Sequence record: NC_028863.1
Origin: Escherichia phage P694
DNA length: 40,477 nucleotides
Strand: one strand, 5' to 3'
The notes beneath the pieces were generated by a model, which did no database searches, was not told where the DNA came from, and saw only the letters and a program-made list of their open reading frames with translations. Position numbers and translations under genes: made by a program. This document shows, piece by piece, positions 173 through 40,477 of this stretch (position 1 is the first letter of the stretch; each line of letters begins with the position of its first letter).

Positions 173-229
173 GGAGACATTATTATGAAGATTTACAAAG
201 GATGGAAGTACACTGTGGTTACTGATAAG
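1..229. repeat. Terminal overlap of the window with itself (1..229 = 40249..40477), indicating a circularised or concatemer-derived assembly
   Basis: Exact 229-bp identity between the window start and end, read directly. Confidence 0.9.
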
Positions 230-562
230 GATACCGGAATCTCCACTTACGACATCTTTAATGAAGACGGTATCGACTGGTATAAGATGATGGTCGAACT
301 GGACGACCGAGACCTTAAGTGGGTCATCGGGGTTAAAGATGGCTTCGTCAATTGGGCTACCACTAAGTCGGTCAACGGGATGAACTCCCCAGCCGATGGT
401 GGCATATTGATTCTAACAGATGACTTCCCGTTCCCTGAGAACACTTTCGGTGTTCGATTTGATGGTGAGAAGTTTTATAAAGAAGAACCAGTGGTTCGAA
501 CCAAAGCAGACATCGAGGCAGACCTTCTAAGGCTCATGGCTGAGTTGAAATCCATAAGCTAA
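185..562 (+). CDS. Hypothetical 125-aa protein between tail fibre and holin; no T7 counterpart I recognise; candidate tail-fibre-associated or host-range accessory protein
   Basis: ATG at 185 preceded by AAGGAGA 171..177; clean ORF in a tightly packed operon; position immediately after gene 17. Confidence 0.6.
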   Translation: MKIYKGWKYTVVTDKDTGISTYDIFNEDGIDWYKMMVELDDRDLKWVIGVKDGFVNWATTKSVNGMNSPADGGILILTDDFPFPENTFGVRFDGEKFYKEEPVVRTKADIEADLLRLMAELKSIS

Positions 563-1095: not shown

Positions 1096-1141
1096 ACTCA
1101 CGGCGACTGTGCGTGAAATCTGGAAATATGGGAGGGTAGTT

Positions 1142-1588
1142 ATGCTCAAGAATTTAAAGAGATACGCCATAATCGCTGCGTTTGCCTTGGGAATTACCCT
1201 TGCGTACAACCACGGCTATGACAAGGCTAACACTAAATGGGAACAGGAGGTGCACAATGAGTACGTTAAGAAAGTTGAGGCGACTGCGGATAAACAGGCT
1301 GCTCTCAATGAAGTCTCACGACAATACCAAGAAGACCTTGCGGCGCTGGAAGGCAGCACTGATAGGGTCATTAATGATTTGCGTAACGATGGTAAGCGGC
1401 TGCGCGTCAAACTATCAGCCACCTCACGAGAACTCCAAGCTAACGGTGGATGCCTCGTTGATGGTCGAGCCGAACTTGACGAAGAGTTTAGTAAGCGTCT
1501 TATCGGAGTAACTCAAAGAGGGGATGCGTGGATTCGTGCGCTCCAAGATACAATCAAAGAAATGCAAACTAAGAAGGAGGCTAAGTAA
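1142..1588 (+). CDS. 18.5: Rz-like i-spanin (T7 gp18.5-like)
   Basis: Internal ATG 1142 with GGGAGG RBS; N-terminal membrane anchor; similarity to T7 gp18.5 ([12 protein letters not shown]... motif). Confidence 0.85.
1257..1511 (+). CDS. 18.7: Rz1-like o-spanin lipoprotein, embedded in the +1 frame of gene 18.5
   Basis: ATG 1257 with GGAGG RBS; lipobox-like ...[10 protein letters not shown]; C-terminal SLMVEPNLT as in T7 gp18.7. Confidence 0.8.
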   Translation: MSTLRKLRRLRINRLLSMKSHDNTKKTLRRWKAALIGSLMICVTMVSGCASNYQPPHENSKLTVDASLMVEPNLTKSLVSVLSE

Positions 1589-3348
1589 TGTCACAATCCC
1601 AAGAAGCTAAGAATGCGTTAATCATTGCGCAACTTAAGGGTGATTTTGTTGCTTTCTTATTCGTCTTATGGAAGGCTCTGAACTTACCTAAACCAACCAA
1701 GTGTCAGATTGATATGGCACGTACACTCGCTAATGGTGACCACAAGAAGTTTATCCTTCAGGCGTTCCGTGGTATCGGCAAGTCCTTTATCACCTGTGCG
1801 TTCGTTGTGTGGGTCTTATGGCGTGATCCTCAACTTAAGGTGCTCATCGTGTCTGCCTCTAAGGAACGTGCTGACGCTAACTCCATCTTCATCAAGAACA
1901 TCATTGACCTGCTGCCATTCCTCGCTGAGTTAAAACCTCGACCGGGACAGCGTGACTCTGTGATTAGCTTCGACGTTGGCTTGGCGAAACCCGACCACTC
2001 ACCCTCTGTGAAGTCTGTGGGTATCACTGGTCAGTTAACTGGTAGCCGTGCTGACATCATCATTGCAGATGACGTTGAGGTTCCCGGCAATAGCTCTACG
2101 AGTTCGGCCCGTGAGAAGCTCTGGACGTTGGTAACTGAGTTTGCTGCGTTACTTAAGCCACTGCCTACCTCTCGTGTTATCTACCTTGGCACACCTCAAA
2201 CCGAGATGACGCTCTACAAGGAACTTGAGGATAACAAAGGGTACAGCACTGTAATCTGGCCTGCACAGTATCCACGTAATGACGCTGAGGCTCTCTACTA
2301 TGGGGACCGCTTGGCTCCGATGCTTAAGGCTGAATACGATGAAGGCTTTGAGTTACTTCGTGGTCAACCTACTGACCCTATTCGATTCGATATGGATGAC
2401 CTCCGTGAACGTGAACTCGAATATGGCAAAGCTGGCTACACGCTTCAGTTCATGCTTAACCCGAACCTTAGTGATGCCGAGAAGTACCCGCTACGACTCC
2501 GTGACGCTATCGTGTGCGCTGTGGACCCTGAACGTGCCCCATTGTCTTACCAGTGGTTGCCGAACCGTCAGAACCGCAATGAGGAACTCCCTAACGTTGG
2601 TCTGAAGGGTGATGACATCCATGCGTTCCATACGTGCTCTTCTCGTACCGCTGAGTATCAGTCTAAGATTCTGGTCATTGACCCAAGTGGTCGTGGTAAG
2701 GATGAGACCGGGTATGCAGTCCTGTACTCACTTAACGGTTATATCTACTTGATGGAAGTCGGTGGGTTCCGTGGTGGTTACGATGATGCTACCCTAGAGA
2801 AGCTCGCTAAGAAGGCCAAGCAGTGGAAGGTACAGACAGTCGTCCACGAGTCCAACTTCGGTGATGGTATGTTCGGTAAGATTTTCTCTCCGATTCTCCT
2901 GAAGCACCACAAGTGTGCCTTAGAGGAAATCCGTGCTAAAGGCATGAAGGAGGTGCGAATCTGCGATACTATCGAACCATTGATGGGTGCGCACAAGCTG
3001 GTCATTCGTGATGAGGTTATCCGTGAGGACTACCAGACTGCTCGTGACCTTGATGGGAAACATGATGTTCGCTACAGTGCGTTCTATCAGATGACCCGTA
3101 TGACCCGTGAGCGAGGCGCTGTGGCACACGATGACCGACTTGATGCTATCGCATTGGGTATCGAGTTCCTGCGTGAAGGGATGCTTGTGGACAGCCGTGT
3201 AGGTGAAGAAGAGATGACCCTTGAGTTCCTTGAACACCACATGGAGAAACAGACCATTGGTGGTGATGCTATCCATAGCTACGATGTTGGTGGCGTGGAC
3301 ATCTACTACGAGGACGATGGAGACTCTAGCTGCTTCATTGAGTGGTAA
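1588..3348 (+). CDS. 19: Terminase large subunit (DNA maturation protein B)
   Basis: 586 aa, same length as T7 gp19 with high similarity as recalled; ATG overlaps the 18.5 stop. Confidence 0.95.
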
Positions 3349-3458: not shown

Positions 3459-3615
3459 GGCACCCTAAGACAACTTAAAGACACTTAAAGACTGCATATG
3501 CAAAGTGCATACTTAGTGACTAACTCTAAGAGACCCTTACAGTGAGGGATGATAGTAATAGTAATTACATCCCCACTATCAGTGTAACCATCAAGTATAA
3601 CAAGGAGGACGCTCT

Positions 3616-3771
3616 ATGCGCTTACTAACCGTGCTCAAGACACTGGCAACGCATCGAGTGACCTATAAATTTCTCGTTGTACTTGCTGCTTCCATTGGTC
3701 TCGCATCTAGTGCTGAACACATCGGTGAACTGGAGACTCTGCTTTGTTCTCTACTCACTTGTGTTCCTTAG
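3616..3771 (+). CDS. 19.5: gp19.5-like small protein
   Basis: 51 aa MRLLTVLKTLATHRVTYKFLVVL..., similar to T7 gp19.5 as recalled; AAGGAGG RBS. Confidence 0.75.
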   Translation: MRLLTVLKTLATHRVTYKFLVVLAASIGLASSAEHIGELETLLCSLLTCVP

Positions 3772-3859
3772 ACTGCTCATCGGCGCTTAATGCGCTCTTA
3801 GTGATTATGGTCGATATACATCTTCCCTATAATCACTGTAAGAAGTCAACTCTAAGAGT

Positions 3860-4300
3860 AACCCTTATGTACCCTCTATGGTCTACAGGGTCTCTTAGGG
3901 TCTCACCTTATGATAGAGCCTCTGTGGTTAACCTTATGAGAGACTTGATGTACCCTTTAAGAATCCTACAGAAAAATCTGAGTGGGTATCTCATAGTTCA
4001 TACACACCGAGTTCCCCCTATGGCCTCCTTCAGTCCCACCCAAAGAGTGCCACCCCTTATGATAACTTATGGTTTACTTAATGTCAATCCTTATGTGAGA
4101 CATTGGGTTAACTCTAGGTGTTACCACTAGATGTGGTGCTTAGAGTGACCTTATGACCACTATATGTAGTCCTCTCTGTGTCCCTATCTGTAATCACCTT
4201 ATGTTTCCTCTTAGAGTTAACACCTTATGTCACCTCTTATTAGCTACGCTAACCTTAATGTTACTCCTTATGGCTGCCTCTCCTTATGTTAACCTTCAGT
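3860..4300. repeat. Array of short dispersed CCTTATG-type repeats in the genome-end region
   Basis: At least 10 copies of (A/C)CCTTATG at irregular spacing (e.g. 3865, 3907, 3932, 4046, 4091, 4151, 4198, 4224, 4268, 4284); analogous to the CCTAAAG repeats at the T7 ends. Confidence 0.7.
3990..4200. repeat. Predicted location of the collapsed direct terminal repeat; physical left end near 3990 (approximate)
   Basis: TCTCATAGTTCATACACACCGAGTTCCCCCTATGG resembles the T7 left terminus TCTCACAGTGTACGGACC...TTCCCCCATAGGG; CTCTCTGTGTCCCTATCTGT (about 4175..4195) matches a T7 terminal-repeat segment. Confidence 0.35.
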
Positions 4301-4366
4301 CGGTGCCTTCAGTCTATAGACACCTATCGTTACCACTCTTAGACCAGCCTTAAAGACCATACAGCT

Positions 4367-4391
4367 AATGCGACTCACTATTGAGAATGGT
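4367..4391 (+). promoter_or_regulatory. Phage RNAP promoter variant (phiOL-like)
   Basis: TAATGCGACTCACTATTGAGAATGG; degenerate relative to the consensus seen elsewhere in the window. Confidence 0.5.
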
Positions 4392-4482
4392 TGTTTATAG
4401 TCTTATTACTATTCCCTTCCTTATAGGCTAACTTAAAGAGACTTAAAGAGACTCTGAGACTACTTAAAGTTTCAACTAGGGG

Positions 4483-4511
4483 TTGACTCTAAGAAACAGC
4501 TGTGAGACTAT
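4483..4511 (+). promoter_or_regulatory. Candidate host sigma70 early promoter (A1-like)
   Basis: TTGACT, 17-bp spacer, GACTAT; position upstream of the early genes as in T7. Confidence 0.45.
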
Positions 4512-4617
4512 AGCAACCGTTGAGAGACACAACGCTACCAACTACCAGACAAGACCGCGAGTTATCTGGTAATGCTGAAGAGTCTCAAGTAGTCATCAAC
4601 CAGACATAAGAAAGTGG

Positions 4618-4646
4618 TTGACTCAACGAAAGAAATAACGTAGTAT
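4618..4646 (+). promoter_or_regulatory. Candidate host sigma70 early promoter (A2-like)
   Basis: TTGACT, 17-bp spacer, TAGTAT. Confidence 0.55.
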
Positions 4647-4712
4647 AGCAGTCGTCAACAACTGGTCGCCCTATGAAACAACATGAGGTGTCACGGTGAC
4701 AAACAAAAGTAG

Positions 4713-4742
4713 TTGACAGGCAGTAAAGTTAAGATGTAAGAT
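4713..4742 (+). promoter_or_regulatory. Candidate host sigma70 early promoter (A3-like)
   Basis: TTGACA, 18-bp spacer, TAAGAT. Confidence 0.55.
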
Positions 4743-4860
4743 GTACGACATGCAGTAAGGGTGTAGGGATAGGAACCGAGAAACCTGCCCGTGACCCGCC
4801 AAGGATAAGGCACTAGCCGTGAGTCGAATTCGGTCACTCATCGCATAAAAGAATAACAGG

Positions 4861-4889
4861 TTGACAGTCTCCTTTAAAAACTGTAAGCT
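4861..4889 (+). promoter_or_regulatory. Candidate additional host sigma70 promoter
   Basis: TTGACA, 17-bp spacer, TAAGCT. Confidence 0.4.
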
Positions 4890-5080
4890 GTACCACATGC
4901 ACTACATAACGTTCTTGTGAGGTCACACACTGAAAGTGACTCGGTGCTAACAAACCTGCACTTAAAGTTCTTTAACAATTTGGTCGTGTAATTCCCTTAC
5001 TGCGGGACAGGTAGTCAAGAACTACGGGGATGACGTGAACGCACAAGCGTTTAACCAGTGATGACGCCGACTGATAGCGA

Positions 5081-5136
5081 TTAACTCAAGGGCGCACATT
5101 AAGTAACAACGTGTGCTCTTTATGATAATCACTAAC
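5081..5136 (+). promoter_or_regulatory. RNase III-like hairpin upstream of the SAM hydrolase gene
   Basis: aactcaagg + hairpin + ctttatgata motif. Confidence 0.5.
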
Positions 5137-5156
5137 ACACATAATGAGGCACTATC

Positions 5157-5615
5157 ATGATTTACACTAACGAACCTGCAAACGTATTCTATGTACTGGT
5201 ATCAGCGTTCCGCTCCAACCTCTGCGATGAAGTCAATATGAGCCGTCATCGTCACATGGTTAACTCACTGCGTAATGCACCACTTGAATACGGTAGCGTT
5301 GAGTCTACAAATTTGACTGGTTGTTATCGAGAGGTTATCGCAAGTGCACCAACTGAGGAACTGACCGTTCGTGTACGCTGTGCTAACAAAGCTCAAGCAA
5401 TAGCGGTTGCACGTCTGGCGTGTAACGAGTTCGAGCAAGATTGTGTATTGGTCTATAAGTCACAGACGCACACGGCTGGCTTAGTGTACGCTCAAGGTAT
5501 TGCTGGCTATAAAGCTGAACGTCTGCCGGGTAGCTTCCAAGAAGTGCCTAAAGGCGCACCGCTTCAAGGTTGCTTCACGATTGATGAGTTCGGTCGCCGC
5601 TGGCAAGTACAGTAA
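5157..5615 (+). CDS. S-adenosylmethionine hydrolase/lyase (T3 gene 0.3-type anti-restriction)
   Basis: 152 aa; very similar to phage T3 SAMase as I recall it (MI.T.EPA.VFYVLVSAFRSNLCDEVNMSRHRHMV ... GCFTIDEFGRRWQVQ). Confidence 0.85.
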   Translation: MIYTNEPANVFYVLVSAFRSNLCDEVNMSRHRHMVNSLRNAPLEYGSVESTNLTGCYREVIASAPTEELTVRVRCANKAQAIAVARLACNEFEQDCVLVYKSQTHTAGLVYAQGIAGYKAERLPGSFQEVPKGAPLQGCFTIDEFGRRWQVQ

Positions 5616-8050: not shown

Positions 8051-10702
8051 ATGACTAACGTAATCAACGCACCAAAGAACGACTTCTCTGACATCGCTAA
8101 CGCAATCATGCCATACAACATTCTGGCTGACCATTACGGTGCACAGCTTGCAGCTACACAGCTTGAGTTAGAACATGAAGCGCACACTGAAGGCGAGAAG
8201 CGTTTCCTTAAGGCAATGGAACGTCAAATCAAAGCGGGTGAGTTCGGTGATAACGCAGTGGCTAAACCGCTCCTGTCATCTCTCGCACCAAAGTTTATCG
8301 AGGCGTGGAACACTTGGTTCACCGAGGTGGAAGCGAAGCGTGGCAAGCGTCCAGTGGCCTACAATCTGGTACAGAAGGTTGCACCTGAAGCGGCTGCTTT
8401 CATCACACTGAAGGTCACGCTGGCTTGCTTGACGAAAGAAGAGTTTACCAACCTGCAATCGGTCGCCACTAAGATTGGTCGTAGCATTGAAGATGAGTTA
8501 CGTTTCGGACGCATTCGTGATGAAGAAGCGAAACACTTTAAGAATCACGTACAGGAGGCACTGAACAAGCGCGTTGGTATCGTCTACAAGAAAGCATTCA
8601 TGCAAGCCGTAGAAGGCAAGATGTTAGACGCTGGTCAACTGCAAACCAAGTGGACTACATGGACACCTGAAGAATCAATTCACGTTGGTGTGCGCATGTT
8701 GGAACTGCTCATCGGGTCTACTGGTCTCGTTGAGTTACACCGACCGTTTGCTGGTAACGTTGAGAAGGATGGCGAGTACATCCAGTTAACCGAACAATAC
8801 GTTGACCTGTTATCTAAACGTGCTGGTGCACTGGCTGCAATCGCTCCAATGTATCAACCTTGCGTGGTCCCTCCTAAGCCTTGGACGAGTCCGGTCGGTG
8901 GCGGCTATTGGGCTGCTGGTCGCAAGCCTCTCTCTCTGGTTCGAACTGGTTCCAAGAAGGGACTTGAGCGTTACAACGACGTGTACATGCCTGAAGTTTA
9001 CAAGGCGGTGAACATCGCACAGAATACTCCTTGGAAGATTAACAAGAAGGTTCTGGCAGTGGTCAATGAGATTGTGAACTGGAAGCATTGCCCGGTTGAC
9101 GATGTACCTGCTCTCGAACGTGGTGAACTGCCTGTCAAACCTGAAGACATCGACACGAACGAAGCGGCTCTGAAAGCGTGGAAGAAAGCGGCCTCCGCAA
9201 TCTATCGCAAAGAGAAGGCCCGTGTGTCTCGTCGCATGAGCATGGAGTTCATGTTAGGGCAAGCCAACAAGTTCGCACAGTTTAAAGCTATCTGGTTCCC
9301 GATGAACATGGACTGGCGCGGTCGTGTGTATGCTGTACCGATGTTCAACCCGCAAGGCAACGACATGACCAAGGGTCTGTTAACGCTCGCTAAAGGTAAA
9401 CCAATCGGTGTCGATGGGTACTACTGGCTGAAGATTCACGGTGCTAACACTGCTGGCGTGGACAAGGTGGACTTTGCAGAACGCATCAAGTTCATTGAGG
9501 ACAACCACGAGAACATCATGAGCGTTGCGGCTGACCCGATTGCTAACACTTGGTGGGCTGAACAAGACTCTCCGTTCTGCTTCCTCGCGTTCTGCTTCGA
9601 GTATGCTGGCGTTCAACACCACGGTATGAACTACAACTGCTCTCTGCCGCTGGCGTTCGATGGCTCTTGCTCTGGTATTCAGCACTTCTCTGCAATGCTT
9701 CGTGATGAAGTAGGTGGACGCGCTGTTAACCTGATGCCAAGCAAGGAAGTACAAGACATCTACCGCATCGTTGCCGAACGTGTGAACGAAATCCTGAATC
9801 AAGATGTTATCAACGGGACCGACAACGAAGTAGAGACAGTGACCAACAAGGACACAGGCGAAATCACTGAGAAGCTGAAGTTAGGCACGAAGGAACTGGC
9901 TGGTCAATGGCTGGCATACGGTGTAACTCGCAAGGAAACTAAGCGTTCGGTCATGACGTTGGCTTACGGTTCCAAAGAGTACGGCTTCCGTGACCAAGTT
10001 CTTGAGGACACCATTCAGCCAGCTATCGACGATGGCAATGGATTGATGTTCACTCAACCGAACCAAGCTGCTAGCTATATGGCTAAACTGATTTGGAACG
10101 CTGTAACGGTGACTGTGGTCGCAGCGGTTGAAGCGATGAACTGGTTGAAGTCTGCTGCTAAACTTCTGGCTGCTGAAGTCAAGGACAAGAAGACTAAAGA
10201 GGTTCTCCGCAAGCGCTGCGCGGTACATTGGGTAACACCTGATGGCTTCCCTGTGTGGCAGGAGTATCGCAAGGCAGTACAGACTCGTTTGAACCTGATG
10301 TTCTTGGGTCAGATTCGTTTGCAGCCTACTGTGAACACCAACAAGGATAGCGGAATTGACGCACGTAAGCAGGAGTCAGGCATCGCACCTAACTTTGTTC
10401 ACTCAATGGACGGCAGCCACCTGAGAATGACTGTAGTGCGCTCCAATGAGGTCTACGGTGTGGAATCCTTCGCACTGATTCATGACTCCTTTGGTACTAT
10501 CCCTGCTGATGCTGGCAACCTGTTTAAAGCAGTGCGTGAAACGATGGTCAACACTTACGAAGAGAACGATGTACTTGCAGACTTCTATGAACAGTTTGCG
10601 GACCAGTTGCACGAGTCACAGCTTGACAAGATGCCTGAGATGCCAGCTAAAGGCGCTCTCGACCTCCAAGAAATCCTGAAGTCAGACTTTGCGTTTGCCT
10701 AA
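8051..10702 (+). CDS. 1: Single-subunit DNA-directed RNA polymerase
   Basis: 883 aa, same length as T7 RNAP, near-identical over long stretches including the C-terminal ...FAFA. Confidence 0.98.
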   Translation: MTNVINAPKNDFSDIANAIMPYNILADHYGAQLAATQLELEHEAHTEGEKRFLKAMERQIKAGEFGDNAVAKPLLSSLAPKFIEAWNTWFTEVEAKRGKRPVAYNLVQKVAPEAAAFITLKVTLACLTKEEFTNLQSVATKIGRSIEDELRFGRIRDEEAKHFKNHVQEALNKRVGIVYKKAFMQAVEGKMLDAGQLQTKWTTWTPEESIHVGVRMLELLIGSTGLVELHRPFAGNVEKDGEYIQLTEQYVDLLSKRAGALAAIAPMYQPCVVPPKPWTSPVGGGYWAAGRKPLSLVRTGSKKGLERYNDVYMPEVYKAVNIAQNTPWKINKKVLAVVNEIVNWKHCPVDDVPALERGELPVKPEDIDTNEAALKAWKKAASAIYRKEKARVSRRMSMEFMLGQANKFAQFKAIWFPMNMDWRGRVYAVPMFNPQGNDMTKGLLTLAKGKPIGVDGYYWLKIHGANTAGVDKVDFAERIKFIEDNHENIMSVAADPIANTWWAEQDSPFCFLAFCFEYAGVQHHGMNYNCSLPLAFDGSCSGIQHFSAMLRDEVGGRAVNLMPSKEVQDIYRIVAERVNEILNQDVINGTDNEVETVTNKDTGEITEKLKLGTKELAGQWLAYGVTRKETKRSVMTLAYGSKEYGFRDQVLEDTIQPAIDDGNGLMFTQPNQAASYMAKLIWNAVTVTVVAAVEAMNWLKSAAKLLAAEVKDKKTKEVLRKRCAVHWVTPDGFPVWQEYRKAVQTRLNLMFLGQIRLQPTVNTNKDSGIDARKQESGIAPNFVHSMDGSHLRMTVVRSNEVYGVESFALIHDSFGTIPADAGNLFKAVRETMVNTYEENDVLADFYEQFADQLHESQLDKMPEMPAKGALDLQEILKSDFAFA

Positions 10703-12990: not shown

Positions 12991-13010
12991 TACGACTCAC
13001 ATATGGAGGA
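12988..13010 (+). promoter_or_regulatory. Phage-promoter-like sequence overlapping the RBS of the next gene
   Basis: TAATACGACTCACATATGGAGGA. Confidence 0.45.
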
Positions 13011-34675: not shown

Positions 34676-37600
34676 GTGGATAAGTATAACCCGAACGAAC
34701 CGCATGAATATGATGCGTTATTTCAACAAGCTGCTGACACACATGGAGTCTCCTATGGCCTTCTTCGGAAGGTCGGTTGGGTAGAGTCCCGCTTTAAGCC
34801 TACGGCTCAATCACCAACAGGACCGAGAGGTGTCATGCAGTTCACTAAGGCAACTGGTCAGGCTTATGGTCTCCAGAACGATGAAGATTTTAATGACCCG
34901 GCTAAGTCCATTGATGCAGGTGCTCGTTACCTTGCAGACCTCGTTAAGAAGTATAATGGTGATGAACTTAAAGCTGCCCTAGCGTACAACCAAGGTGAAG
35001 GACGTAATGGTAAGCCTCAACTGGAAGCCTACGATTCTGGTAACTTTGCAAACATTGGGGACGAAGGTCGTAACTATCTGCGTTCACTTCTGGATGTCGC
35101 TAAGTCTCCTAAGAGTGGAGACATTGAGTCATTCGGCGGTATCACCCCAAAGGCTAAAGGGATTCCGTTTGATGCTGCGATGAGTGGTATCGGGAAGAAA
35201 GGAAAGGTAACAACAGAACTCCCTGAGTCTCACGAAATGTCCTTTCAAGGTAAAGAACAGGCCGCTCCCAATCAGCCGTTCGGTAAAGACTATTGGGAAG
35301 CAAAAGGAACAACTCTTGACGAAGCCAATGAGCGTTCAACCTTCTTCGGATTCGGTAGTGCTGCTGAAGCAGAACTCTCCAACTCAACCTTGGGTGTTGC
35401 CTTCCGTGCTGGTAAGCGCGACAATGGTTTTGATGTGCTCACTGACGTACTTCAACCGACACGGTTTAATAGCCACATATGGTCGCCTGAAGAACTGGAG
35501 AAGATTCGGACTGAAGTAAAGAACCCTGCGTACATGAACGTTGTACTTGGTGGTTCCGCTGAGAACCTTGACGAGCTAATCAAAATGGCTAACGAGAACT
35601 TCGAGGCTGATGCTAAGGCTGCTGATGCTGGACTTGGTGCCAAGCTGTCTGCTGGCCTGATTGGTGCTGGTGTGGACCCGTTGACCTACGTCCCACTCGC
35701 AGGGAGTACAGCCAAGGGATTCAAACTGGTGAACAAGGCATTGATGGTGGGTGCTCAAGCTGGTGCACTTAACGTTGCCTCTGAGGGTCTGCGTACATCC
35801 GTTGCTGGTGGTAATGCTCACTATGCTGAAGCTGCCCTTGCTGGGATGTTACTGGCTGGTGGACTGACTGCTGTGGCAGATGGTGTTGCCGCTGGTCTCC
35901 GTAAGTCTGGTGCTGAACAGATTGAGAACCCCTTTGCTGCTGCACAGATGCGCTTTGAGGCTCGTGAGACTGCACGTAACACTGGTGGTTATGATGCAAG
36001 CCGTATGCCTCCTAGTGAAGACCGAGTGTTCTCACAGCACAACGGCGTTGAGTATTCACCTCTTGAGACCGAACCGGGTGCCGTAGTGTTGCGTGATGGT
36101 TCTATTATCAGTGACACCAACTTAGCTAACCCGATGACAGCCAGAGAGTTCGCCGAGGTAGACCCTGAACGTGCTGCTTGGGGATTGCCTATGCGTGGTC
36201 TGAGTGAAATCGGTCTGAGAACTCTACGTTCTGAACATGCTGAAATCCGTGGTCTCGCTAAGGACTTAGTGCGTTCACCTACAGGGATGGAGTCTGGCTC
36301 ACATGGTAAGTTCGGTGCTACCGCATCTGACATCAAAGAGCGACTGCACAGTACCAACCAGCGAACCTACAATGACCTCTATGGTGCAATGAAGGAAGCA
36401 ATGGCTGACCCCGAGTGGTCTGTGGGTATGTTCAAGAGTGGTGCTCAAGGTGCCCGTCAAGAAATCTATCGTCGTGCTGCTGTGGCTATCGAGCGTCCTG
36501 AACTTCAGGCTAACTTGACCAAGGCAGAGCGTAAGGTGATGGACATCATGAAGGAACACTTTGACCTCAAGCGGGAGATGATGGAGAACCCGTCGATGTT
36601 CGGTAACAAGGCCAACTCTATCTTCCCTAACAGTCGTCACAAAGGGACTTACGTTCCTCATGTGTACTCACGGGAAGCCAAGCAGTTGTACTCACAGGCT
36701 CTTGGTGGCTCTGATGGTTTACAGGAAGCAATCGCTGCAAGCTGGATGACCTCTTATCGTTCACGTCCAGAAGTTAAGGCTCGTGTAGATGAGCACTTAG
36801 CGGAGACCTTGGGCATCGACACGAAGGCTGTAACCGAAGAGATGGTGATGAAACATGCCAGCGACAAGGCTTATGGTATTGCGAAGACAGATGAGTTCAA
36901 CTCTTCAAGTGTCATTGACGATAACATTGAGGGTCTCGTTGGTATTGAGAACAACTCATTCCTTGAAGCCCGTAACCTATTCGATTCTGACATGCCAGTC
37001 ACCCTACCTAATGGACAGCCATTCTCTGTGAACGACCTCCGTGACTTCGATATGAAGCATGTGATGCCAGCATATGACCGCCGCGTTGATGGTGACATTG
37101 CTATCATGGGTGGCACAGGGAAGACCACTGCTGAACTGAAGGATTCCATTATGGCTCTCGATAAGAAGTCAGAAGGGAAGGGCACGATGAAAGGTGAAGT
37201 GGAAGCACTTAAGGATACCGTTAAGATTCTCACTGGTCGTGCTCGACGTAATCAGGATACTGTAGGTGACACTATGGTCCGTGCCCTGTCCGATATGTCC
37301 TTCTTTACGAAGAACGCATATATGGGCTTGCAGAACCTAACCGAAATCTCCGGTATGTTGGCGAAGGGTAACATTCGTGCGATGCTTCATGGTATTCCGG
37401 TACTGCGTGACTTAGCGTTCCGCAACAAGCCAGTCTCCGGTAGTGAACTCAAAGAACTCCACTCTATGGTGTTCGGTAAAGAGTTCGACCAGTTAATCCG
37501 ACCGACTCGTCAAGACATCATTCAGCGACTCCGTGAGTCAACTGATACACCTGATGTTGCAGCAAAGGTTGTCGGTTCTATTAAGCACACAACTCAAGAG

Positions 37601-38623
37601 TTAGCTGCCCGTTCCCCACTGACCAAGTTCCTCAACGGTACATCAAACTACCTTCTGGACATGGCTCGACAGGGTGTGATGGGTGATGTGGTCACTCACG
37701 CTATTACAGGCAAAGGTGCCAACAAGTGGATTAAAGGTGACATGCTGAAGTCTGCGAGTATCTCTAAGGAACAGTGGGAAGGCATTCAGTCTCTCATCCG
37801 GGAGAACGTGACTCGTGGTGAAGACGGTAAGTTCACCTTCAAGGACAAGCGTAAGCTGGCTAACGACCCTCGTGCTATGGACTTATGGCGTTTAGCTGAT
37901 AAGGTTGCTGATGAGACGATGCTCCGACCTCATAAGGTTTCCTTACAGGATTCCCATGCGTTTGGTGCTACCGCTAAGTTAGTCCTTCAGTTTAAGTCGT
38001 TTGTCATCAAGTCGATGAACTCTAAGTTTATCCGCTCTGGCAACGAAGCCTTTAAGAATCATCGTGCTATGGACATGGCGCTGACCTATGCTATCTCTGG
38101 TGGTCTTGCTGGTTCCTACTACGTGGCACAGGCTCACTTGAAAGCTGCTGGTCTTCCTAAAGAGCAACAGAAGGATTACTTGAAGAAAGCTCTGGACCCT
38201 AAGATGATTGCCTACGCTGCGGCCTCCCGAAGTTCACACCTTGGGTCTCCGTTGAGTATCGCCAACTTCGCTATGGGTGCTGCCGGTTACGACCAAGGTC
38301 TTATGGTCCGCTCTACGATTCTACCTAAAGGTGATGACAAGCGTGAGCGCAATAAGGCAGTAACTTCTCGTGACATGGGTGATTCCATTATGGGCGCTAT
38401 TGGTGAACAGGTTCCTGCTCTTGGGTTCGCTGGTGCCACTCTTGCTGCTGGTCGAAATGCTTATGGTGTCCTTACGGCTCCTAACAAAGTGACCGAGCGT
38501 GAGATGATGACTGGCTTGATGAATGCCCACCGAGAGATGATTCCTAACGACCCAATCTCTCAGCAGATGCTCATTAAGTTCTATGAGGCCAACGGTGTTC
38601 ACATTAAGGCTGACAAGAAGTAA
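34676..38623 (+). CDS. 16: Internal virion protein D with N-terminal lytic transglycosylase domain (gp16-like); GTG start
   Basis: 1315 aa; starts at GTG 34676 preceded by GGAGG; transglycosylase motif ...WVESRF.PTA.S.TGP.G.MQFTKAT...ALAYNQGEG. Confidence 0.93.
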   Translation: MDKYNPNEPHEYDALFQQAADTHGVSYGLLRKVGWVESRFKPTAQSPTGPRGVMQFTKATGQAYGLQNDEDFNDPAKSIDAGARYLADLVKKYNGDELKAALAYNQGEGRNGKPQLEAYDSGNFANIGDEGRNYLRSLLDVAKSPKSGDIESFGGITPKAKGIPFDAAMSGIGKKGKVTTELPESHEMSFQGKEQAAPNQPFGKDYWEAKGTTLDEANERSTFFGFGSAAEAELSNSTLGVAFRAGKRDNGFDVLTDVLQPTRFNSHIWSPEELEKIRTEVKNPAYMNVVLGGSAENLDELIKMANENFEADAKAADAGLGAKLSAGLIGAGVDPLTYVPLAGSTAKGFKLVNKALMVGAQAGALNVASEGLRTSVAGGNAHYAEAALAGMLLAGGLTAVADGVAAGLRKSGAEQIENPFAAAQMRFEARETARNTGGYDASRMPPSEDRVFSQHNGVEYSPLETEPGAVVLRDGSIISDTNLANPMTAREFAEVDPERAAWGLPMRGLSEIGLRTLRSEHAEIRGLAKDLVRSPTGMESGSHGKFGATASDIKERLHSTNQRTYNDLYGAMKEAMADPEWSVGMFKSGAQGARQEIYRRAAVAIERPELQANLTKAERKVMDIMKEHFDLKREMMENPSMFGNKANSIFPNSRHKGTYVPHVYSREAKQLYSQALGGSDGLQEAIAASWMTSYRSRPEVKARVDEHLAETLGIDTKAVTEEMVMKHASDKAYGIAKTDEFNSSSVIDDNIEGLVGIENNSFLEARNLFDSDMPVTLPNGQPFSVNDLRDFDMKHVMPAYDRRVDGDIAIMGGTGKTTAELKDSIMALDKKSEGKGTMKGEVEALKDTVKILTGRARRNQDTVGDTMVRALSDMSFFTKNAYMGLQNLTEISGMLAKGNIRAMLHGIPVLRDLAFRNKPVSGSELKELHSMVFGKEFDQLIRPTRQDIIQRLRESTDTPDVAAKVVGSIKHTTQELAARSPLTKFLNGTSNYLLDMARQGVMGDVVTHAITGKGANKWIKGDMLKSASISKEQWEGIQSLIRENVTRGEDGKFTFKDKRKLANDPRAMDLWRLADKVADETMLRPHKVSLQDSHAFGATAKLVLQFKSFVIKSMNSKFIRSGNEAFKNHRAMDMALTYAISGGLAGSYYVAQAHLKAAGLPKEQQKDYLKKALDPKMIAYAAASRSSHLGSPLSIANFAMGAAGYDQGLMVRSTILPKGDDKRERNKAVTSRDMGDSIMGAIGEQVPALGFAGATLAAGRNAYGVLTAPNKVTEREMMTGLMNAHREMIPNDPISQQMLIKFYEANGVHIKADKK

Positions 38624-38624
38624 A

Positions 38625-38648
38625 CAATACGACTCACTATTGGGAAGG
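38625..38648 (+). promoter_or_regulatory. Phage RNAP promoter (phi17-like)
   Basis: CAATACGACTCACTATTGGGAAGG followed by a GGGAAGGCT...AGCTTCCC hairpin. Confidence 0.8.
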
Positions 38649-38692
38649 CTAACACAGCTTCCCTTTATTATACCCAACTAAGGAGGTACATT

Positions 38693-40420
38693 ATGGCTCT
38701 TAAAATTCGTACCGTAATGACTTACCCGCTGAATGGCTCTACTGTGGACTTCGGTATCACGTTTGAGTATCTAGCGCGTAAGTTCGTTTCGGTGACTCTT
38801 ATTGGTAAAGACCGCAAAGAGTTGGTCTTGAATCAGGACTTCCGGTTTACCACTAAGACTCAAATCACAACCACTCGTGCGTGGAGTCCATCTGATGGAT
38901 ACACCATGATTGAGATTCGTCGTTACACCTCCGTTACCGACCGTCTGGTGGACTTTGCTGATGGTTCTATCCTCCGTGCTTATGACCTGAACATTGCTCA
39001 AATCCAGACACTTCACGTTGCTGAAGAGGCTCGTGATTTAACAGCGGATACGATTGGCGTTAACAACGATGGGAACCTAGATGCGCGTGGTCGCCGCATT
39101 GTGAACCTAGCGAATGCTGTAGAGGATGGTGATGCTATCAATCTTGGTCAGGTAAAGGGCTGGAATGAATCAGCATGGAACTCTAAGAATGAAGCGGCAA
39201 CATCTGCCAACTGGTCTGCTCGCTGGGCGCAAGGTGAAGGTGTCATCGCTGATGGTCGCTACTCTTCCCGCCAATACAACGAATGGGCGATGGCTATTCA
39301 GAAGGATGTAGAGCGTATGCGTGGCCTTGTGGCTGCTGACGCTAAGTGGGCAGATGAGTCTGTCAACAAGGCAAAGAACTCCGAGAACGCTGCTGCCGCG
39401 TCTGCTACTGCTGCTTCTGGTGATGCTCGCTGGGCTAACGAATCGGCACAGAAGGCAAAGACATCTGAGACCAACGCGAAGGCTTCCGAAGAAAGGGCAA
39501 TCCTTGAGGCGAACAAGCTGGAGAACAACAATGCACTAGCGGCCTCTATCCGTGGAATCACTGGTAACGACGTTAAGTGGAAGGGTTCTCACCAGTTTAC
39601 TAACGGTGTCTCTATTGTTCGTGCTGACAACTTAGAGCACGTTTGGCGGCAGGGCTTATGGGCTGAAGGTAATGCGCTTCACTCCGACTTTGTTACCGAG
39701 CTTCCGGGTGGAGAGTTTGGTTCTGGTGCTTTCACTCATATGCACTTCGTATATCCAGTATCAGGGGTTCCTACTCTTGACATGTACCCACACACAACGT
39801 TCAACTCCAAGGTCGTAACAAAGTCGATGATTGATTCACAGGCTAACTTCTCTGGTGCGCACTCTGACCAGTACAACGACTATGCCCCACTGTGGCAACA
39901 GGTTCGTGCTTCGAGTGGTAATGAGTTCTTCCCGTTAATCAAACAGCGTTCCTATCAGGCTGGGGCTGATGCTCGCTCTTGGACTATGGGTATTCTATTG
40001 GATAACAACAGAATCGCGCAGTGGAACCTACTGACGACTAACGAGGGAGGTGTTGCAAATGCGTCCTATACGTGGACTCGTGATGGGGACTTTAATGCTC
40101 CTCGTCAGGTAGTCTCTGGCTCTTTCAGAACACATGGTGGTAGTGTATTAGGTGGCGATGGTAACATCACAGGCAGTGCATTCGGGCCTCAGAACAACAT
40201 TGCGGATTGGATTCGTGCCAACTTCCCCGGTGACATCTGGCTCGCCAACCCTGAGTGGTATCCCCACAATGGTAGCTATCAAGAACTTACTGTAGGCTCC
40301 GGTCACGTATGTACTGGTATCGTTCTGAACACTGGTGGCGTGTGCTCTGGTATGCAACACCGGGGTATGTGGATTGGGTATCACAACGGCGCGCAACGTC
40401 AGGTTGCCTCTATTGGATAA
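38693..40420 (+). CDS. 17: Tail fibre protein with conserved N-terminal tail-attachment domain and divergent C-terminal receptor-binding region
   Basis: 575 aa; residues 1 to about 150 closely match T7 gp17 (FEYLARKFV.VTLIG.DRK, RLVDFADGSILRAYDLN.AQIQT.HVAEEARDLT.DTIGVNNDG.LDARGRRIVNLANAV); the C-terminal half does not match T7 as I recall it. Confidence 0.93.
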   Translation: MALKIRTVMTYPLNGSTVDFGITFEYLARKFVSVTLIGKDRKELVLNQDFRFTTKTQITTTRAWSPSDGYTMIEIRRYTSVTDRLVDFADGSILRAYDLNIAQIQTLHVAEEARDLTADTIGVNNDGNLDARGRRIVNLANAVEDGDAINLGQVKGWNESAWNSKNEAATSANWSARWAQGEGVIADGRYSSRQYNEWAMAIQKDVERMRGLVAADAKWADESVNKAKNSENAAAASATAASGDARWANESAQKAKTSETNAKASEERAILEANKLENNNALAASIRGITGNDVKWKGSHQFTNGVSIVRADNLEHVWRQGLWAEGNALHSDFVTELPGGEFGSGAFTHMHFVYPVSGVPTLDMYPHTTFNSKVVTKSMIDSQANFSGAHSDQYNDYAPLWQQVRASSGNEFFPLIKQRSYQAGADARSWTMGILLDNNRIAQWNLLTTNEGGVANASYTWTRDGDFNAPRQVVSGSFRTHGGSVLGGDGNITGSAFGPQNNIADWIRANFPGDIWLANPEWYPHNGSYQELTVGSGHVCTGIVLNTGGVCSGMQHRGMWIGYHNGAQRQVASIG

Positions 40421-40432
40421 GGAGACATTATT

Positions 40433-40477
40433 ATGAAGATTTACAAAGGATGGAAGTACACTGTGGTTACTGATAAG
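40433..40477 (+). CDS. 5' end of the 125-aa post-fibre ORF (duplicate of 185..229; truncated by the window end)
   Basis: Identical to 185..229. Confidence 0.6.
   Translation, partial: MKIYKGWKYTVVTDK

Follow-up and report, generated by a model that had tools for sequence, protein, structure and literature searches.

The tail-fibre gene of Escherichia phage P694 raises the question of whether its distal part is a diverged T7 tip or an exchanged module, and what the small open reading frame (ORF) behind it has to do with the fibre. The window analysed here is the whole 40,477-nt stretch of P694 DNA, in which positions 1 to 229 are an exact duplicate of positions 40249 to 40477; this duplicate is an overlap from a circularizing assembly and no biological repeat, and the unique sequence without it is 40248 nt long. 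P694 is a Berlinvirus-type T7-like phage, and its gp17 gene (575 residues, plus strand, 38693 to 40420 including the stop codon) lies in the T7-type position between gp16 (34676 to 38623) and the holin and terminase genes. As for T7 gp17 (7BOZ, 4A0T; PF03906, PF20744, and PF12604), the gene follows gp16 under a phi17 promoter for the phage RNA polymerase (ACAATACGACTCACTATTGGGAAG, plus strand, 38625 to 38647), which is identical to the BA14 stretch holding the annotated phi17. On its other side, gp17 is flanked by an ORF of 125 amino acids in the same orientation, whose ATG stands 13 nt past the gp17 stop with a GGAG (RBS) before it. The 5' end of this ORF (40434 to 40477, plus strand) runs off the end of the window and, because the first 229 nt repeat the last 229, the reading frame goes on at 230 to 562, a complete copy being present on the plus strand at 185 to 562. 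Gene 17.5 (holin) starts at 575, and the gene order around gp17 is common to D226, P1338, Kvp1, and BA14.

The first-pass annotation had described a T7-like N-terminal anchor of about 150 residues followed by a repetitive shaft with ARW/AKW motifs, and both elements were confirmed. Residues 1 to 150 (38693 to 39142, plus strand) form the conserved tail-attachment domain Phage_T7_tail (PF03906), which Pfam extends over residues 1 to 155 with an E value of 3.9e-56; the identity to T7 gp17 is about 75% overall and 60 to 88% per 25-residue block, and the region aligns with the T7 gp17 chains of 7BOZ (phmmer E value of 4e-82 for P694 gp17), 8DSP, and 8E4G. The N-terminal 450 nt of the gene are 100% identical to those of D226. 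Residues 151 to 300 (39143 to 39592, plus strand) constitute a shaft rich in Ala, Asn, and Ser (A, 21%; N, 10%; S, 10%; E, 9%; K, 8%), presumably a coiled coil, with ARW, AKW, and ARW at residues 176, 217, and 245. It contains a direct repeat of 24 residues (39332 to 39487, plus strand), DAKWADESVNKAKNSENAAAAS at residues 214 to 237 and DARWANESAQKAKTSETNAKAS at residues 242 to 265, whose local self-alignment score of 70 was reached by none of 200 shuffles. The alignment with the T7 shaft is weak (16 to 48% identity), and the phmmer alignment to 7BOZ stops at residue 301. At its end stands the junction LEANKLENNNALAASI..V.WKG, the residues of which are invariant in the tip alignment (A1) and which is the same motif that closes the shaft of T7 gp17 (READKLENYNGLAGAI..V.WKG).

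Comparison at the DNA level revealed sharp limits to the similarity with related phages. The homology (89 to 93% in blastn) to BA14, P1338, and Kvp1 ends at 39112, 39126, and 39174, respectively, which places the left recombination boundary at 39112 to 39174 (codons ~141 to 161), and the identity to D226 drops from 100% to ~68% between 39140 and 39200. Homology restarts just ahead of gene 17.5, at 563 (Kvp1), 564 (BA14), and 565 (P1338), giving a right boundary at 563 to 565, while the stop codon of the 125-residue ORF ends at 562. Since homology breaks off and restarts at these limits, distal gp17 and the ORF constitute a single replaceable cassette, and since the left breakpoint coincides with the end of the N-terminal domain, before the shaft, the shaft belongs to the exchanged piece; the phi17 promoter lies upstream, outside the cassette. 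Scans for sigma-70 promoters and terminators around the cassette returned nothing above the shuffled expectation. The backbone is widely shared: in ~80 phage records, ≥80% of it (window positions 13001 to 38000) is present at 91 to 93% identity, and the gp16/gp17 junction is matched by 89 records, of which a single one, vB_Eco_D226, matches throughout gp17. The host-range module exchange that had been proposed from the sequence is supported by these observations, as is the pairing of the tip with an extra downstream gene, given that the ORF is real, lies inside the cassette, and has its stop at the boundary. The proposed extent holds in part: the distal fibre is indeed exchanged, but its divergence had been taken to begin at 39500 (39500 to 40420, equivalent to residues 270 to 575), whereas the breakpoint is situated ~350 nt upstream.

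Within the phage collection, the P694 cassette recurs in a single isolate, vB_Eco_D226 (MN080711, Berlinvirus), which carries a different allele of the module in the same layout: its fibre (QDH48974, "tail fibers protein") is 84% identical to that of P694 at the protein level and its downstream product (QDH48973, "hypothetical protein") is 94% identical to the 125-residue ORF, while shaft and middle region have only ~70% nucleotide identity. In the 900 nt after the first 450, synonymous sites are saturated (pS of 0.74 to 0.77) and pN/pS is ~0.22; positive selection was therefore rejected as the source of the divergence, and the pattern, as read from the two sequences, indicates old alleles shuffled by recombination and not fast in-place change.

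Distal to the shaft, two regions can be distinguished. Residues 301 to 443 (39593 to 40021, plus strand) make up a variable beta-rich middle region that can be recognized in some related fibres only, with identities of 73% to D226, 43% to Pila, and 34% to Bas104; the AF2 model shows mostly strands, with low confidence at residues 372 to 402, and neither pairwise BLASTP nor profile comparison yielded a T7 counterpart. Residues 444 to 575 (40022 to 40417, plus strand; AF2 pLDDT of ~70 to 86) form a conserved C-terminal domain, which we propose as a putative chaperone-docking and distal tip domain. No Pfam or NCBIfam family matched residues 301 to 575. The pyramid (PF20744, gp37_trimer) and tip (PF12604, gp37_C) families, which T7 gp17 itself matches with E values of 1.6e-40 and 1.1e-15, respectively, gave no match in P694 gp17 at an E value of ≤1, and the C-terminal intramolecular chaperone Peptidase_S74 (PF13884), present in many other T7-like fibres of the gp17 homologue list, had no Pfam match in it either. 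P694 gp17 ends ~10 residues past the ..W.GYHNG.. motif, whereas T7 gp17 continues for ~50 further residues, the beta-sandwich tip. High identity to T7 gp17 over the full length was looked for and is absent, residues 301 to 575 being without a pairwise match.

The view that the distal ~300 residues do not resemble T7 thus stands for pairwise comparison, in which BLASTP of residues 301 to 575 against T7 gp17 found nothing below an E value of 0.8, but not at the profile level. A clean hhalign comparison aligned residues 440 to 565 weakly with residues 392 to 501 of T7 gp17 (probability of 78.8%; E value of 1.7e-5), a stretch that corresponds to the T7 pyramid and connector region, and on account of this profile similarity the tips of P694 and T7 may be related to some extent. 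A first hhalign result for alignment A1 against T7, 98.8%, was rejected as inflated, because P0097, a Kvp1-like sequence acting as a bridge, was among the sequences of A1, and the alignment also took in the conserved junction of the shaft. The word-indexed homologue search gave no matches with the tip alone (residues 283 to 575), and the search with full-length gp17 gave 41 full-length tip homologues.

The same profile alignment can be read in favor of vertical divergence, according to which the distal fibre would be a fast-evolving T7-type tip under diversifying selection and no cassette would have been exchanged, and the intermediate fibres P0053, P0057, and P0066, matching both the P694 tip and the T7 pyramid region, point the same way. 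We regard this account as very improbable for several reasons: (i) the flanks retain 89 to 93% identity, yet similarity is lost abruptly, over ~60 nt at the left boundary and at one position at the right boundary; (ii) the tip family is also found in other genera with differing backbones; (iii) in D226, 450 identical nucleotides are followed by saturated pS and low pN/pS; and (iv) the breakpoints suggest incongruent phylogenies for the backbone and residues 160 to 575.

Turning to the product of the downstream ORF, its predicted fold, PHROG match, and gene position identify it as a putative Mu-like tail-fibre assembly protein (Tfa) of the short type. The AF2 model, computed from an alignment of 4 near-identical sequences and poor in three of five models, matches the Tfa N-terminal domain (5YVQ chain B), and PHROG 136 matches the protein with an E value of 2.9e-6 as well as 9 of 13 family members, at best with an E value of 7e-13. 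Sequence-level similarity to the Mu and lambda Tfa proteins is weak, with an E value of 0.029; hhalign of a 24-sequence profile against Mu U, Mu U', and lambda Tfa likewise gave a weak 56% (E value of 1e-4), and the narrower 13-sequence family reached only 6.6% against Mu and lambda Tfa. The protein has no Pfam (Caudo_TAP) or NCBIfam match, none of the 24 family members has a Pfam match, and the only phmmer matches in the PDB, to OspA repeats, were discarded as spurious. A helix is predicted at residues 107 to 124, and this C-terminal helix is the most conserved part, with R105, D113, L114, L117, E120, and L121 invariant. Among the closest known systems is that of phage Mu, in which tail fibre S is paired with the assembly protein U (TfibMu:TfaMu, 5YVQ).

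The distribution of the family ties this protein to the fibre end. The tip family occurs in 28 T7-like GenBank records from several genera, with Escherichia, Klebsiella, Serratia, and Citrobacter as hosts, and in all 28 a homologue of the 125-residue protein is encoded directly downstream of the fibre gene, the gap measuring 8 to 25 nt in every T7-like record examined; the same holds for 3 of 3 metagenome contigs checked, where the homologue also stands behind the fibre gene. Of the 11 further fibres compared that have such a downstream homologue, 10, that of the T4-like phage Cronus included, show the C-terminal domain at an E value of <1e-5, and the eleventh, PoeticCupcake, gives a marginal E value of 0.024. 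Tfa identity correlates with the identity of the last 130 residues of the fibre (r of 0.95; Mantel P of 2e-4), less so with the middle region (r of 0.74) and the N terminus (r of 0.33). Within the Tfa, the N-terminal part tracks the fibre end (r of ~0.9) more closely than does the C-terminal helix (~0.7), the helix being more conserved, in agreement with the modular model described for the Tfa proteins of Mu and Pam3 (PMC9608196). Part of the co-variation between fibre end and Tfa could stem from the two genes being physically linked as neighbors and not from functional coupling. One contig (L022) combines a Pila-like N terminus (98%) and middle region (87%) with a P694-like C-terminal domain (88%) and Tfa (89%) and is, judging by these identities, a natural recombinant.

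Other phages show the same arrangement to varying degrees. In T7, gene 17 is followed directly by gene 17.5, whereas P694 has a separate Tfa gene between the two, as does the Berlinvirus Kluyvera phage Kvp1, in which distal gp17 is also replaced within the same cassette boundaries and gene 17.2 is annotated "putative phage tail fiber assembly protein." The Kvp1 Tfa is longer (174 residues), is similar to P2 gpG according to its record, and is absent among the tblastn matches of the 125-residue ORF; the P694 tip and Kvp1 gp17 are not significantly similar in pairwise BLASTP (E value of 0.069), and their strong profile match is inflated because the Kvp1-like P0097 sits in the profile. For the BASEL phage EmilieLinder (Bas103, Teseptimavirus), the fibre Gp59 and its partner Gp60 have been presented as a Mu-like complex of fibre and Tfa (PMC11990801); the sister phage Bas104 encodes a homologue, annotated as hypothetical, with 42% identity to the 125-residue protein. 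Beyond the T7-like phages, the T4-like myovirus Cronus of Erwinia (Straboviridae) has a long tail fibre (AWD90415) whose last ~150 residues align to P694 residues 444 to 573 (30%; E value of 4e-9), the rest being unrelated, and a 130-residue protein (AWD90416) with 36% identity to the 125-residue ORF (E value of 2e-23), encoded by the next gene, which fills the gp38 slot ahead of holin gene t. "Escherichia phage ST2" (171 kb) was rejected as a second large-phage context, since its record includes a block of T7-like genes and appears to be a mixed assembly.

The position in Cronus suggests another role, in which the 125-residue protein would stay on the virion tip as a cap or adhesin of the T2/S16 gp38 type and add to receptor specificity. 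Such gp38 adhesins are proteins of ~260 residues in which glycine-rich motifs lie between hypervariable segments. The P694 protein, at only 125 residues with 10 scattered glycines, has neither this size nor a glycine-rich motif, its predicted fold corresponds to the Mu Tfa N-domain and not to a gp38 adhesin, and its family, unlike hypervariable adhesins, is of limited size and shows fair conservation, 1.84 billion proteins having yielded 24 clusters at 50% identity. Although Mu Tfa U was crystallized bound to its fibre (5YVQ), the variable N-terminal part of the P694 protein tracks the fibre end, and a study of Alteromonas phages reports "transient chaperone caps" on tail fibres (PMC10579305), we consider a permanent cap unlikely. 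Still harder to credit, and the least probable of the readings weighed here, is an ORF unconnected with the fibre, such as a gene for a single-stranded DNA (ssDNA)-binding protein or a passenger (moron) gene. The homologues in KPP-5, HZP2, VAC1, VR4605, and Emp27 do carry the label (putative) ssDNA-binding protein, and no curated Pfam or NCBIfam family matches; against this, no SSB family matched, the gene is always found 8 to 25 nt behind the fibre gene in the T7-like records examined and adjoins the fibre gene in Cronus too, fold and PHROG evidence point to a Tfa, and the protein co-varies with the fibre C terminus.

Taken together, gp17 of P694 is probably built of exchangeable modules, its cassette having been gained by recombination, and the 125-residue protein is probably a short Mu-like Tfa. 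Residues 1 to 150, which are backbone-like, would fix the gp17 trimer to the tail, and the ~1.65-kb cassette that starts at codon ~141 to 161 would supply the shaft, the middle region, the C-terminal domain, and the 125-residue gene. The variable N-terminal beta domain of the Tfa may dock on the C-terminal domain of the fibre while the conserved C-terminal helix gathers three copies, and three gp17 chains would then be put in register from the distal end, whereupon the fibre trimerizes. As the presumed receptor-binding part, the distal fibre would set the surface receptor, probably lipopolysaccharide (LPS) as with other T7-like fibres, and hence the host range. A bolder extension, doubtful but conceivable, is that the last ~130 residues of the fibre and a one-helix Tfa of 125 residues make up a self-contained, portable "fold-from-the-tip" unit, a narrow family moving among podoviruses from a number of Studiervirinae genera and one or more T4-like myovirus lineages. 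It would be the most compact Tfa architecture to date, and the Tfa might stay on the virion as a cap that contributes to specificity.

Tail-fibre module swapping is a well-known phage route to new hosts, and T7-like phages with a Tfa gene have already been annotated or published (Kvp1 gene 17.2; Bas103). The locus therefore raises no new biological question, module exchange and Tfa-dependent T7-like fibres being established, and its practical value is modest. The results correct database labels, as the homologues of the 125-residue protein are mostly recorded as "hypothetical" or, wrongly, as "ssDNA-binding protein," and they tell engineers of T7-like phages which piece moves as a unit, namely, a cassette running from 39112/39174 to 562 of the window, with the pairing rule that the C-terminal ~130 residues of the fibre travel with their own Tfa.

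The tail fibre gene of Escherichia phage P694, gp17 (38693..40420, + strand, 575 aa), lies downstream of gp16 (34676..38623) and of a phi17-like promoter, a 23-nt element between the two genes that is identical in sequence to phi17 as annotated in phage BA14. The extra downstream ORF mentioned in the first-pass annotation is present; it encodes 125 aa and starts 13 nt after the gp17 stop (40434), with GGAG ahead of it, its whole copy being found at 185..562 in the duplicated end. Against three relatives that share 89-93% identity over the flanks, homology stops at 39112 and is back at 564 (BA14), at 39126 and 565 (P1338), and at 39174 and 563 (Kvp1). The left limit lies at codons ~141-161, where the N-terminal domain ends, and the right limit falls just past the stop of the 125-aa ORF (562), right before the holin gene (start 575). 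Because homology breaks at the end of the N-terminal domain and returns after the 125-aa stop, the exchanged unit comprises the shaft and distal fibre together with the 125-aa gene. The exchange of a module paired with the downstream ORF, as proposed in the first-pass annotation, agrees with these sharp breaks enclosing both distal gp17 and the 125-aa gene; the distal region that it delimited (39500-40420, gp17 aa 270-575) falls inside the unit, which begins ~350 nt further upstream. The same slot holds a 903-aa gp17 in P1338 and a 655-aa gp17 in BA14, each with no extra gene, and a 590-aa gp17 in Kvp1 together with a gene of its own, 17.2 (174 aa), which bears the annotation tail fibre assembly protein (Tfa).

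The backbone is of the Berlinvirus type, with ~80 GenBank phage records spanning at least 80% of positions 13001-38000 at 91-93% identity, the best match being Escherichia phage vB_Eco_D226. The gp16/gp17 junction was matched in 89 records, and D226 alone (1/89) matched through the cassette. Identity between the window and D226 is 100% at the nucleotide level over 38660-39140 (~480 nt, the gp17 N-terminal domain), 52-82% (mostly 62-75%) over 39200-40100, where synonymous sites are saturated (pS 0.74-0.77; pN/pS ~0.22), 95-97% over 40100-40248, 77-87% across the 3' end of gp17 plus the first half of the 125-aa gene, and 93-100% beyond. This mosaic is the signature of reshuffling among old alleles, not of rapid divergence in place. 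Since the 100% block lies between the adjoining gp16, 90-98% identical, and a shaft of ~70% identity, it suggests that the gp17 N-terminal segment alone was exchanged very recently.

The window represents a T7-like phage genome assembled in circularly permuted form: positions 1-229 exactly duplicate 40249-40477 (unique length, 40248). This duplicate lies within gp17 and the Tfa gene and arose as an overlap when the assembly was circularised; it is not the true terminal repeat of P694. The true genome ends have to be elsewhere, possibly near 4000-5000, where GC drops to 0.43 and GC skew goes negative. Gene 18.5 (1109..1588) abuts gene 19 (1588..3348) in the window; two metagenome contigs with a Tfa gene identical to that of the window, L003 and L004, carry between these genes a 141-aa Endonuclease_7 (HNH-type) gene (9142-9567 and 8740-9165, respectively) that is absent from the window, and other inserts occur at this position in BA14, Bubbas and pEp_SNUABM_03. 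The occurrence of differing inserts at one spot points to a homing-endonuclease hot spot.

Along its full length, gp17 is highly identical to T7 gp17 only at the N-terminus. The closeness of the first ~150 residues to T7 was read correctly in the first-pass annotation, with Pfam Phage_T7_tail spanning aa 1-155 (E 3.9e-56) and 60-88% identity per 25-aa block over aa 1-150. Identity decreases to 16-48% in the shaft (aa 151-300), where it is highest at a junction motif (LEANKLENNNALAASI..V.WKG in gp17, READKLENYNGLAGAI..V.WKG in T7). The shaft is rich in Ala (21%), Asn (10%) and Ser (10%), and its repetitive nature was likewise recovered: ARW/AKW motifs occur at aa 176, 217 and 245, and the score of the repeat of aa 214-237 against 242-265 was reached in 0/200 shuffles. 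The claim that the distal residues do not resemble T7 holds in part. From aa 301 on, neither BLASTP nor phmmer matched T7 gp17, and PF20744 and PF12604, the pyramid and tip domains located at aa 371-464 and 466-542 of T7 gp17, had no match in the window gp17; however, when a clean profile built from 41 sequences of aa 301-575 was used, aa 440-565 aligned to aa 392-501 of T7 (probability 78.8%, E 1.7e-5), a stretch that in T7 runs from the end of the pyramid domain through the connector helix into the beginning of the tip. An initial profile comparison (98.8%) was rejected as inflated by the common junction and by a Kvp1-like sequence in the alignment. The motifs DGNIxG..(F/W)G...(I/L).D(W/Y)(I/L)R..F and (H/F)R..WI are common to both proteins, and the AF2 model of the tip has a helix at aa 503-510, in a place matching the T7 connector; the monomer tip model gave nothing informative in fold searches. 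The most defensible reading is that aa 301-440 are unrelated to T7, that aa 440-565 may be very distantly related to the distal region of T7, and that the last ~50 residues of T7 are missing from the window gp17, which has a separate chaperone instead.

Tblastn with the tip (aa 301-575) matched 28 T7-like records, and marginally T4-like long tail fibres. Tip homologues were found in D226 (80% identity), Serratia phage Pila (41%), Klebsiella Koku phages and Citrobacter phage YSYH (~35%), E. coli phages C5, N30, JB01, AV103, CQ615 and Bas104 (~31%), and 13 Klebsiella phages, in which only the last ~95 aa matched. The metagenome protein collection holds the whole tip in 41 clusters and part of it in ~27 more, mostly the C-terminal ~100 aa, and near-identical copies (97%) are present in sequencing runs; a word-indexed protein search with the tip fragment alone returned nothing despite 97% and 83% identical full-length proteins in the database that was searched, a limitation of the tool.

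The 125-aa protein was matched in 63 records, including all 28 tip records, always directly after the fibre gene, and in 3/3 metagenome contigs checked. It had no match in Pfam or NCBIfam and matched PHROG 136 ("tail fiber assembly protein"; E 2.9e-6), as did 9/13 family members (best E 7e-13). A 24-sequence profile ranked 5yvq_B, the Tfa chain of the Mu fibre:Tfa structure, first in a PDB sequence search (E 0.029) and aligned with Mu U, Mu U' and lambda Tfa (hhalign probability 56%, E 1e-4). The family forms 24 clusters at 50% identity among 1.84 billion proteins, of 113-136 aa bar one match, a ~30-residue repeated stretch of a 2171-aa protein. By PHROG and profile matches, Tfa-like predicted fold and gene position, the 125-aa gene is a predicted short Mu-like Tfa. 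Some homologues already carry the label "tail fiber assembly protein"; others are labelled "(putative) ssDNA-binding protein" (KPP-5 MW600722, HZP2 MK542821/NC_048164, vB_KpnP-VAC1 MZ428229, KpnP_VR4605 OM103160 and Emp27 MN013074), a label that position, PHROG match and predicted fold indicate to be wrong. The record of "Escherichia phage ST2" (OM982647, 171 kb, under Kagunavirus) contains a T7-like block with a gp16 fragment, a fibre fragment, a Tfa-like ORF, a class II holin, small terminase and primase/helicase, and seems to be a chimeric or mixed assembly, not a single genome.

The C-terminal domain of the fibre appears tied to this Tfa. Residues 301-443 are detectable in a subset of fibres only; of 11 further fibres compared that have a downstream 125-aa homologue, 10 have a detectable counterpart of aa 444-575 (E < 1e-5) and the eleventh, PoeticCupcake, a marginal one (E 0.024). 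Across 13 fibre/Tfa pairs, Tfa identity correlated with that of the last 130 aa of the fibre at r 0.95 (Mantel p 2e-4), of the middle region at r 0.74, and of the N-terminus at r 0.33. Contig L022 is a natural recombinant, Pila-like in its N-terminus (98%) and middle region (87%) and window-like in its C-domain (88%) and Tfa (89%); contig L023 has the converse pattern. Within Tfa, the N-part follows the fibre end (r ~0.9) more closely than do the last 25 aa (r ~0.7), and the C-terminal helix is the most conserved part (invariant R105, D113, L114, L117, E120, L121). This co-variation fits the modular picture given for Mu Tfa and for Pam3 gp25 (PMC9608196), where the fibre is bound by a variable N-domain and trimerisation is the task of a conserved helical part at the C-terminus. 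Part of the correlation could come from linkage alone, because adjacent DNA is co-inherited anyway. Erwinia phage Cronus, a T4-like myovirus, encodes a 130-aa Tfa homologue between its long-tail-fibre gene and holin, that is, in the gp38 slot, and the last ~150 aa of its long tail fibre align to window aa 444-573 (30%, E 4e-9); the presence of this pair at the gp37/gp38 position (3508-5393) shows movement of the C-domain/Tfa unit across families. A Tfa homologue is also present in Erwinia phage IT22.

In the proposed mechanism, gp17 and Tfa would be co-transcribed from phi17, and three Tfa copies would dock on the gp17 C-terminal domains, bringing the three gp17 chains into line from the distal end; once complete, the fibre would join the tail via aa 1-150. 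Tfa may then leave the fibre or stay on it as a cap. Other T7-like phages use LPS as receptor, and the distal fibre of P694 would determine the receptor, probably LPS as well.

To conclude, the exchange of the tip together with Tfa in P694 is real, was read correctly in the first-pass annotation, and is ordinary, since exchange of the distal part of gp17 is a textbook pattern in Studiervirinae and Tfa-bearing T7-like phages are already recorded, Kvp1 with its gene 17.2 among them. A Mu-like Tfa has also been described for BASEL phage Bas103 (PMC11990801), where LPS is likewise stated to be the receptor of T7-like phages. What is new is the allele, which is 84% identical to that of the nearest isolate, the exact position of the cassette limits, and evidence that the last ~130 aa of the fibre travel with the short 125-aa Tfa, including into a T4-like phage.
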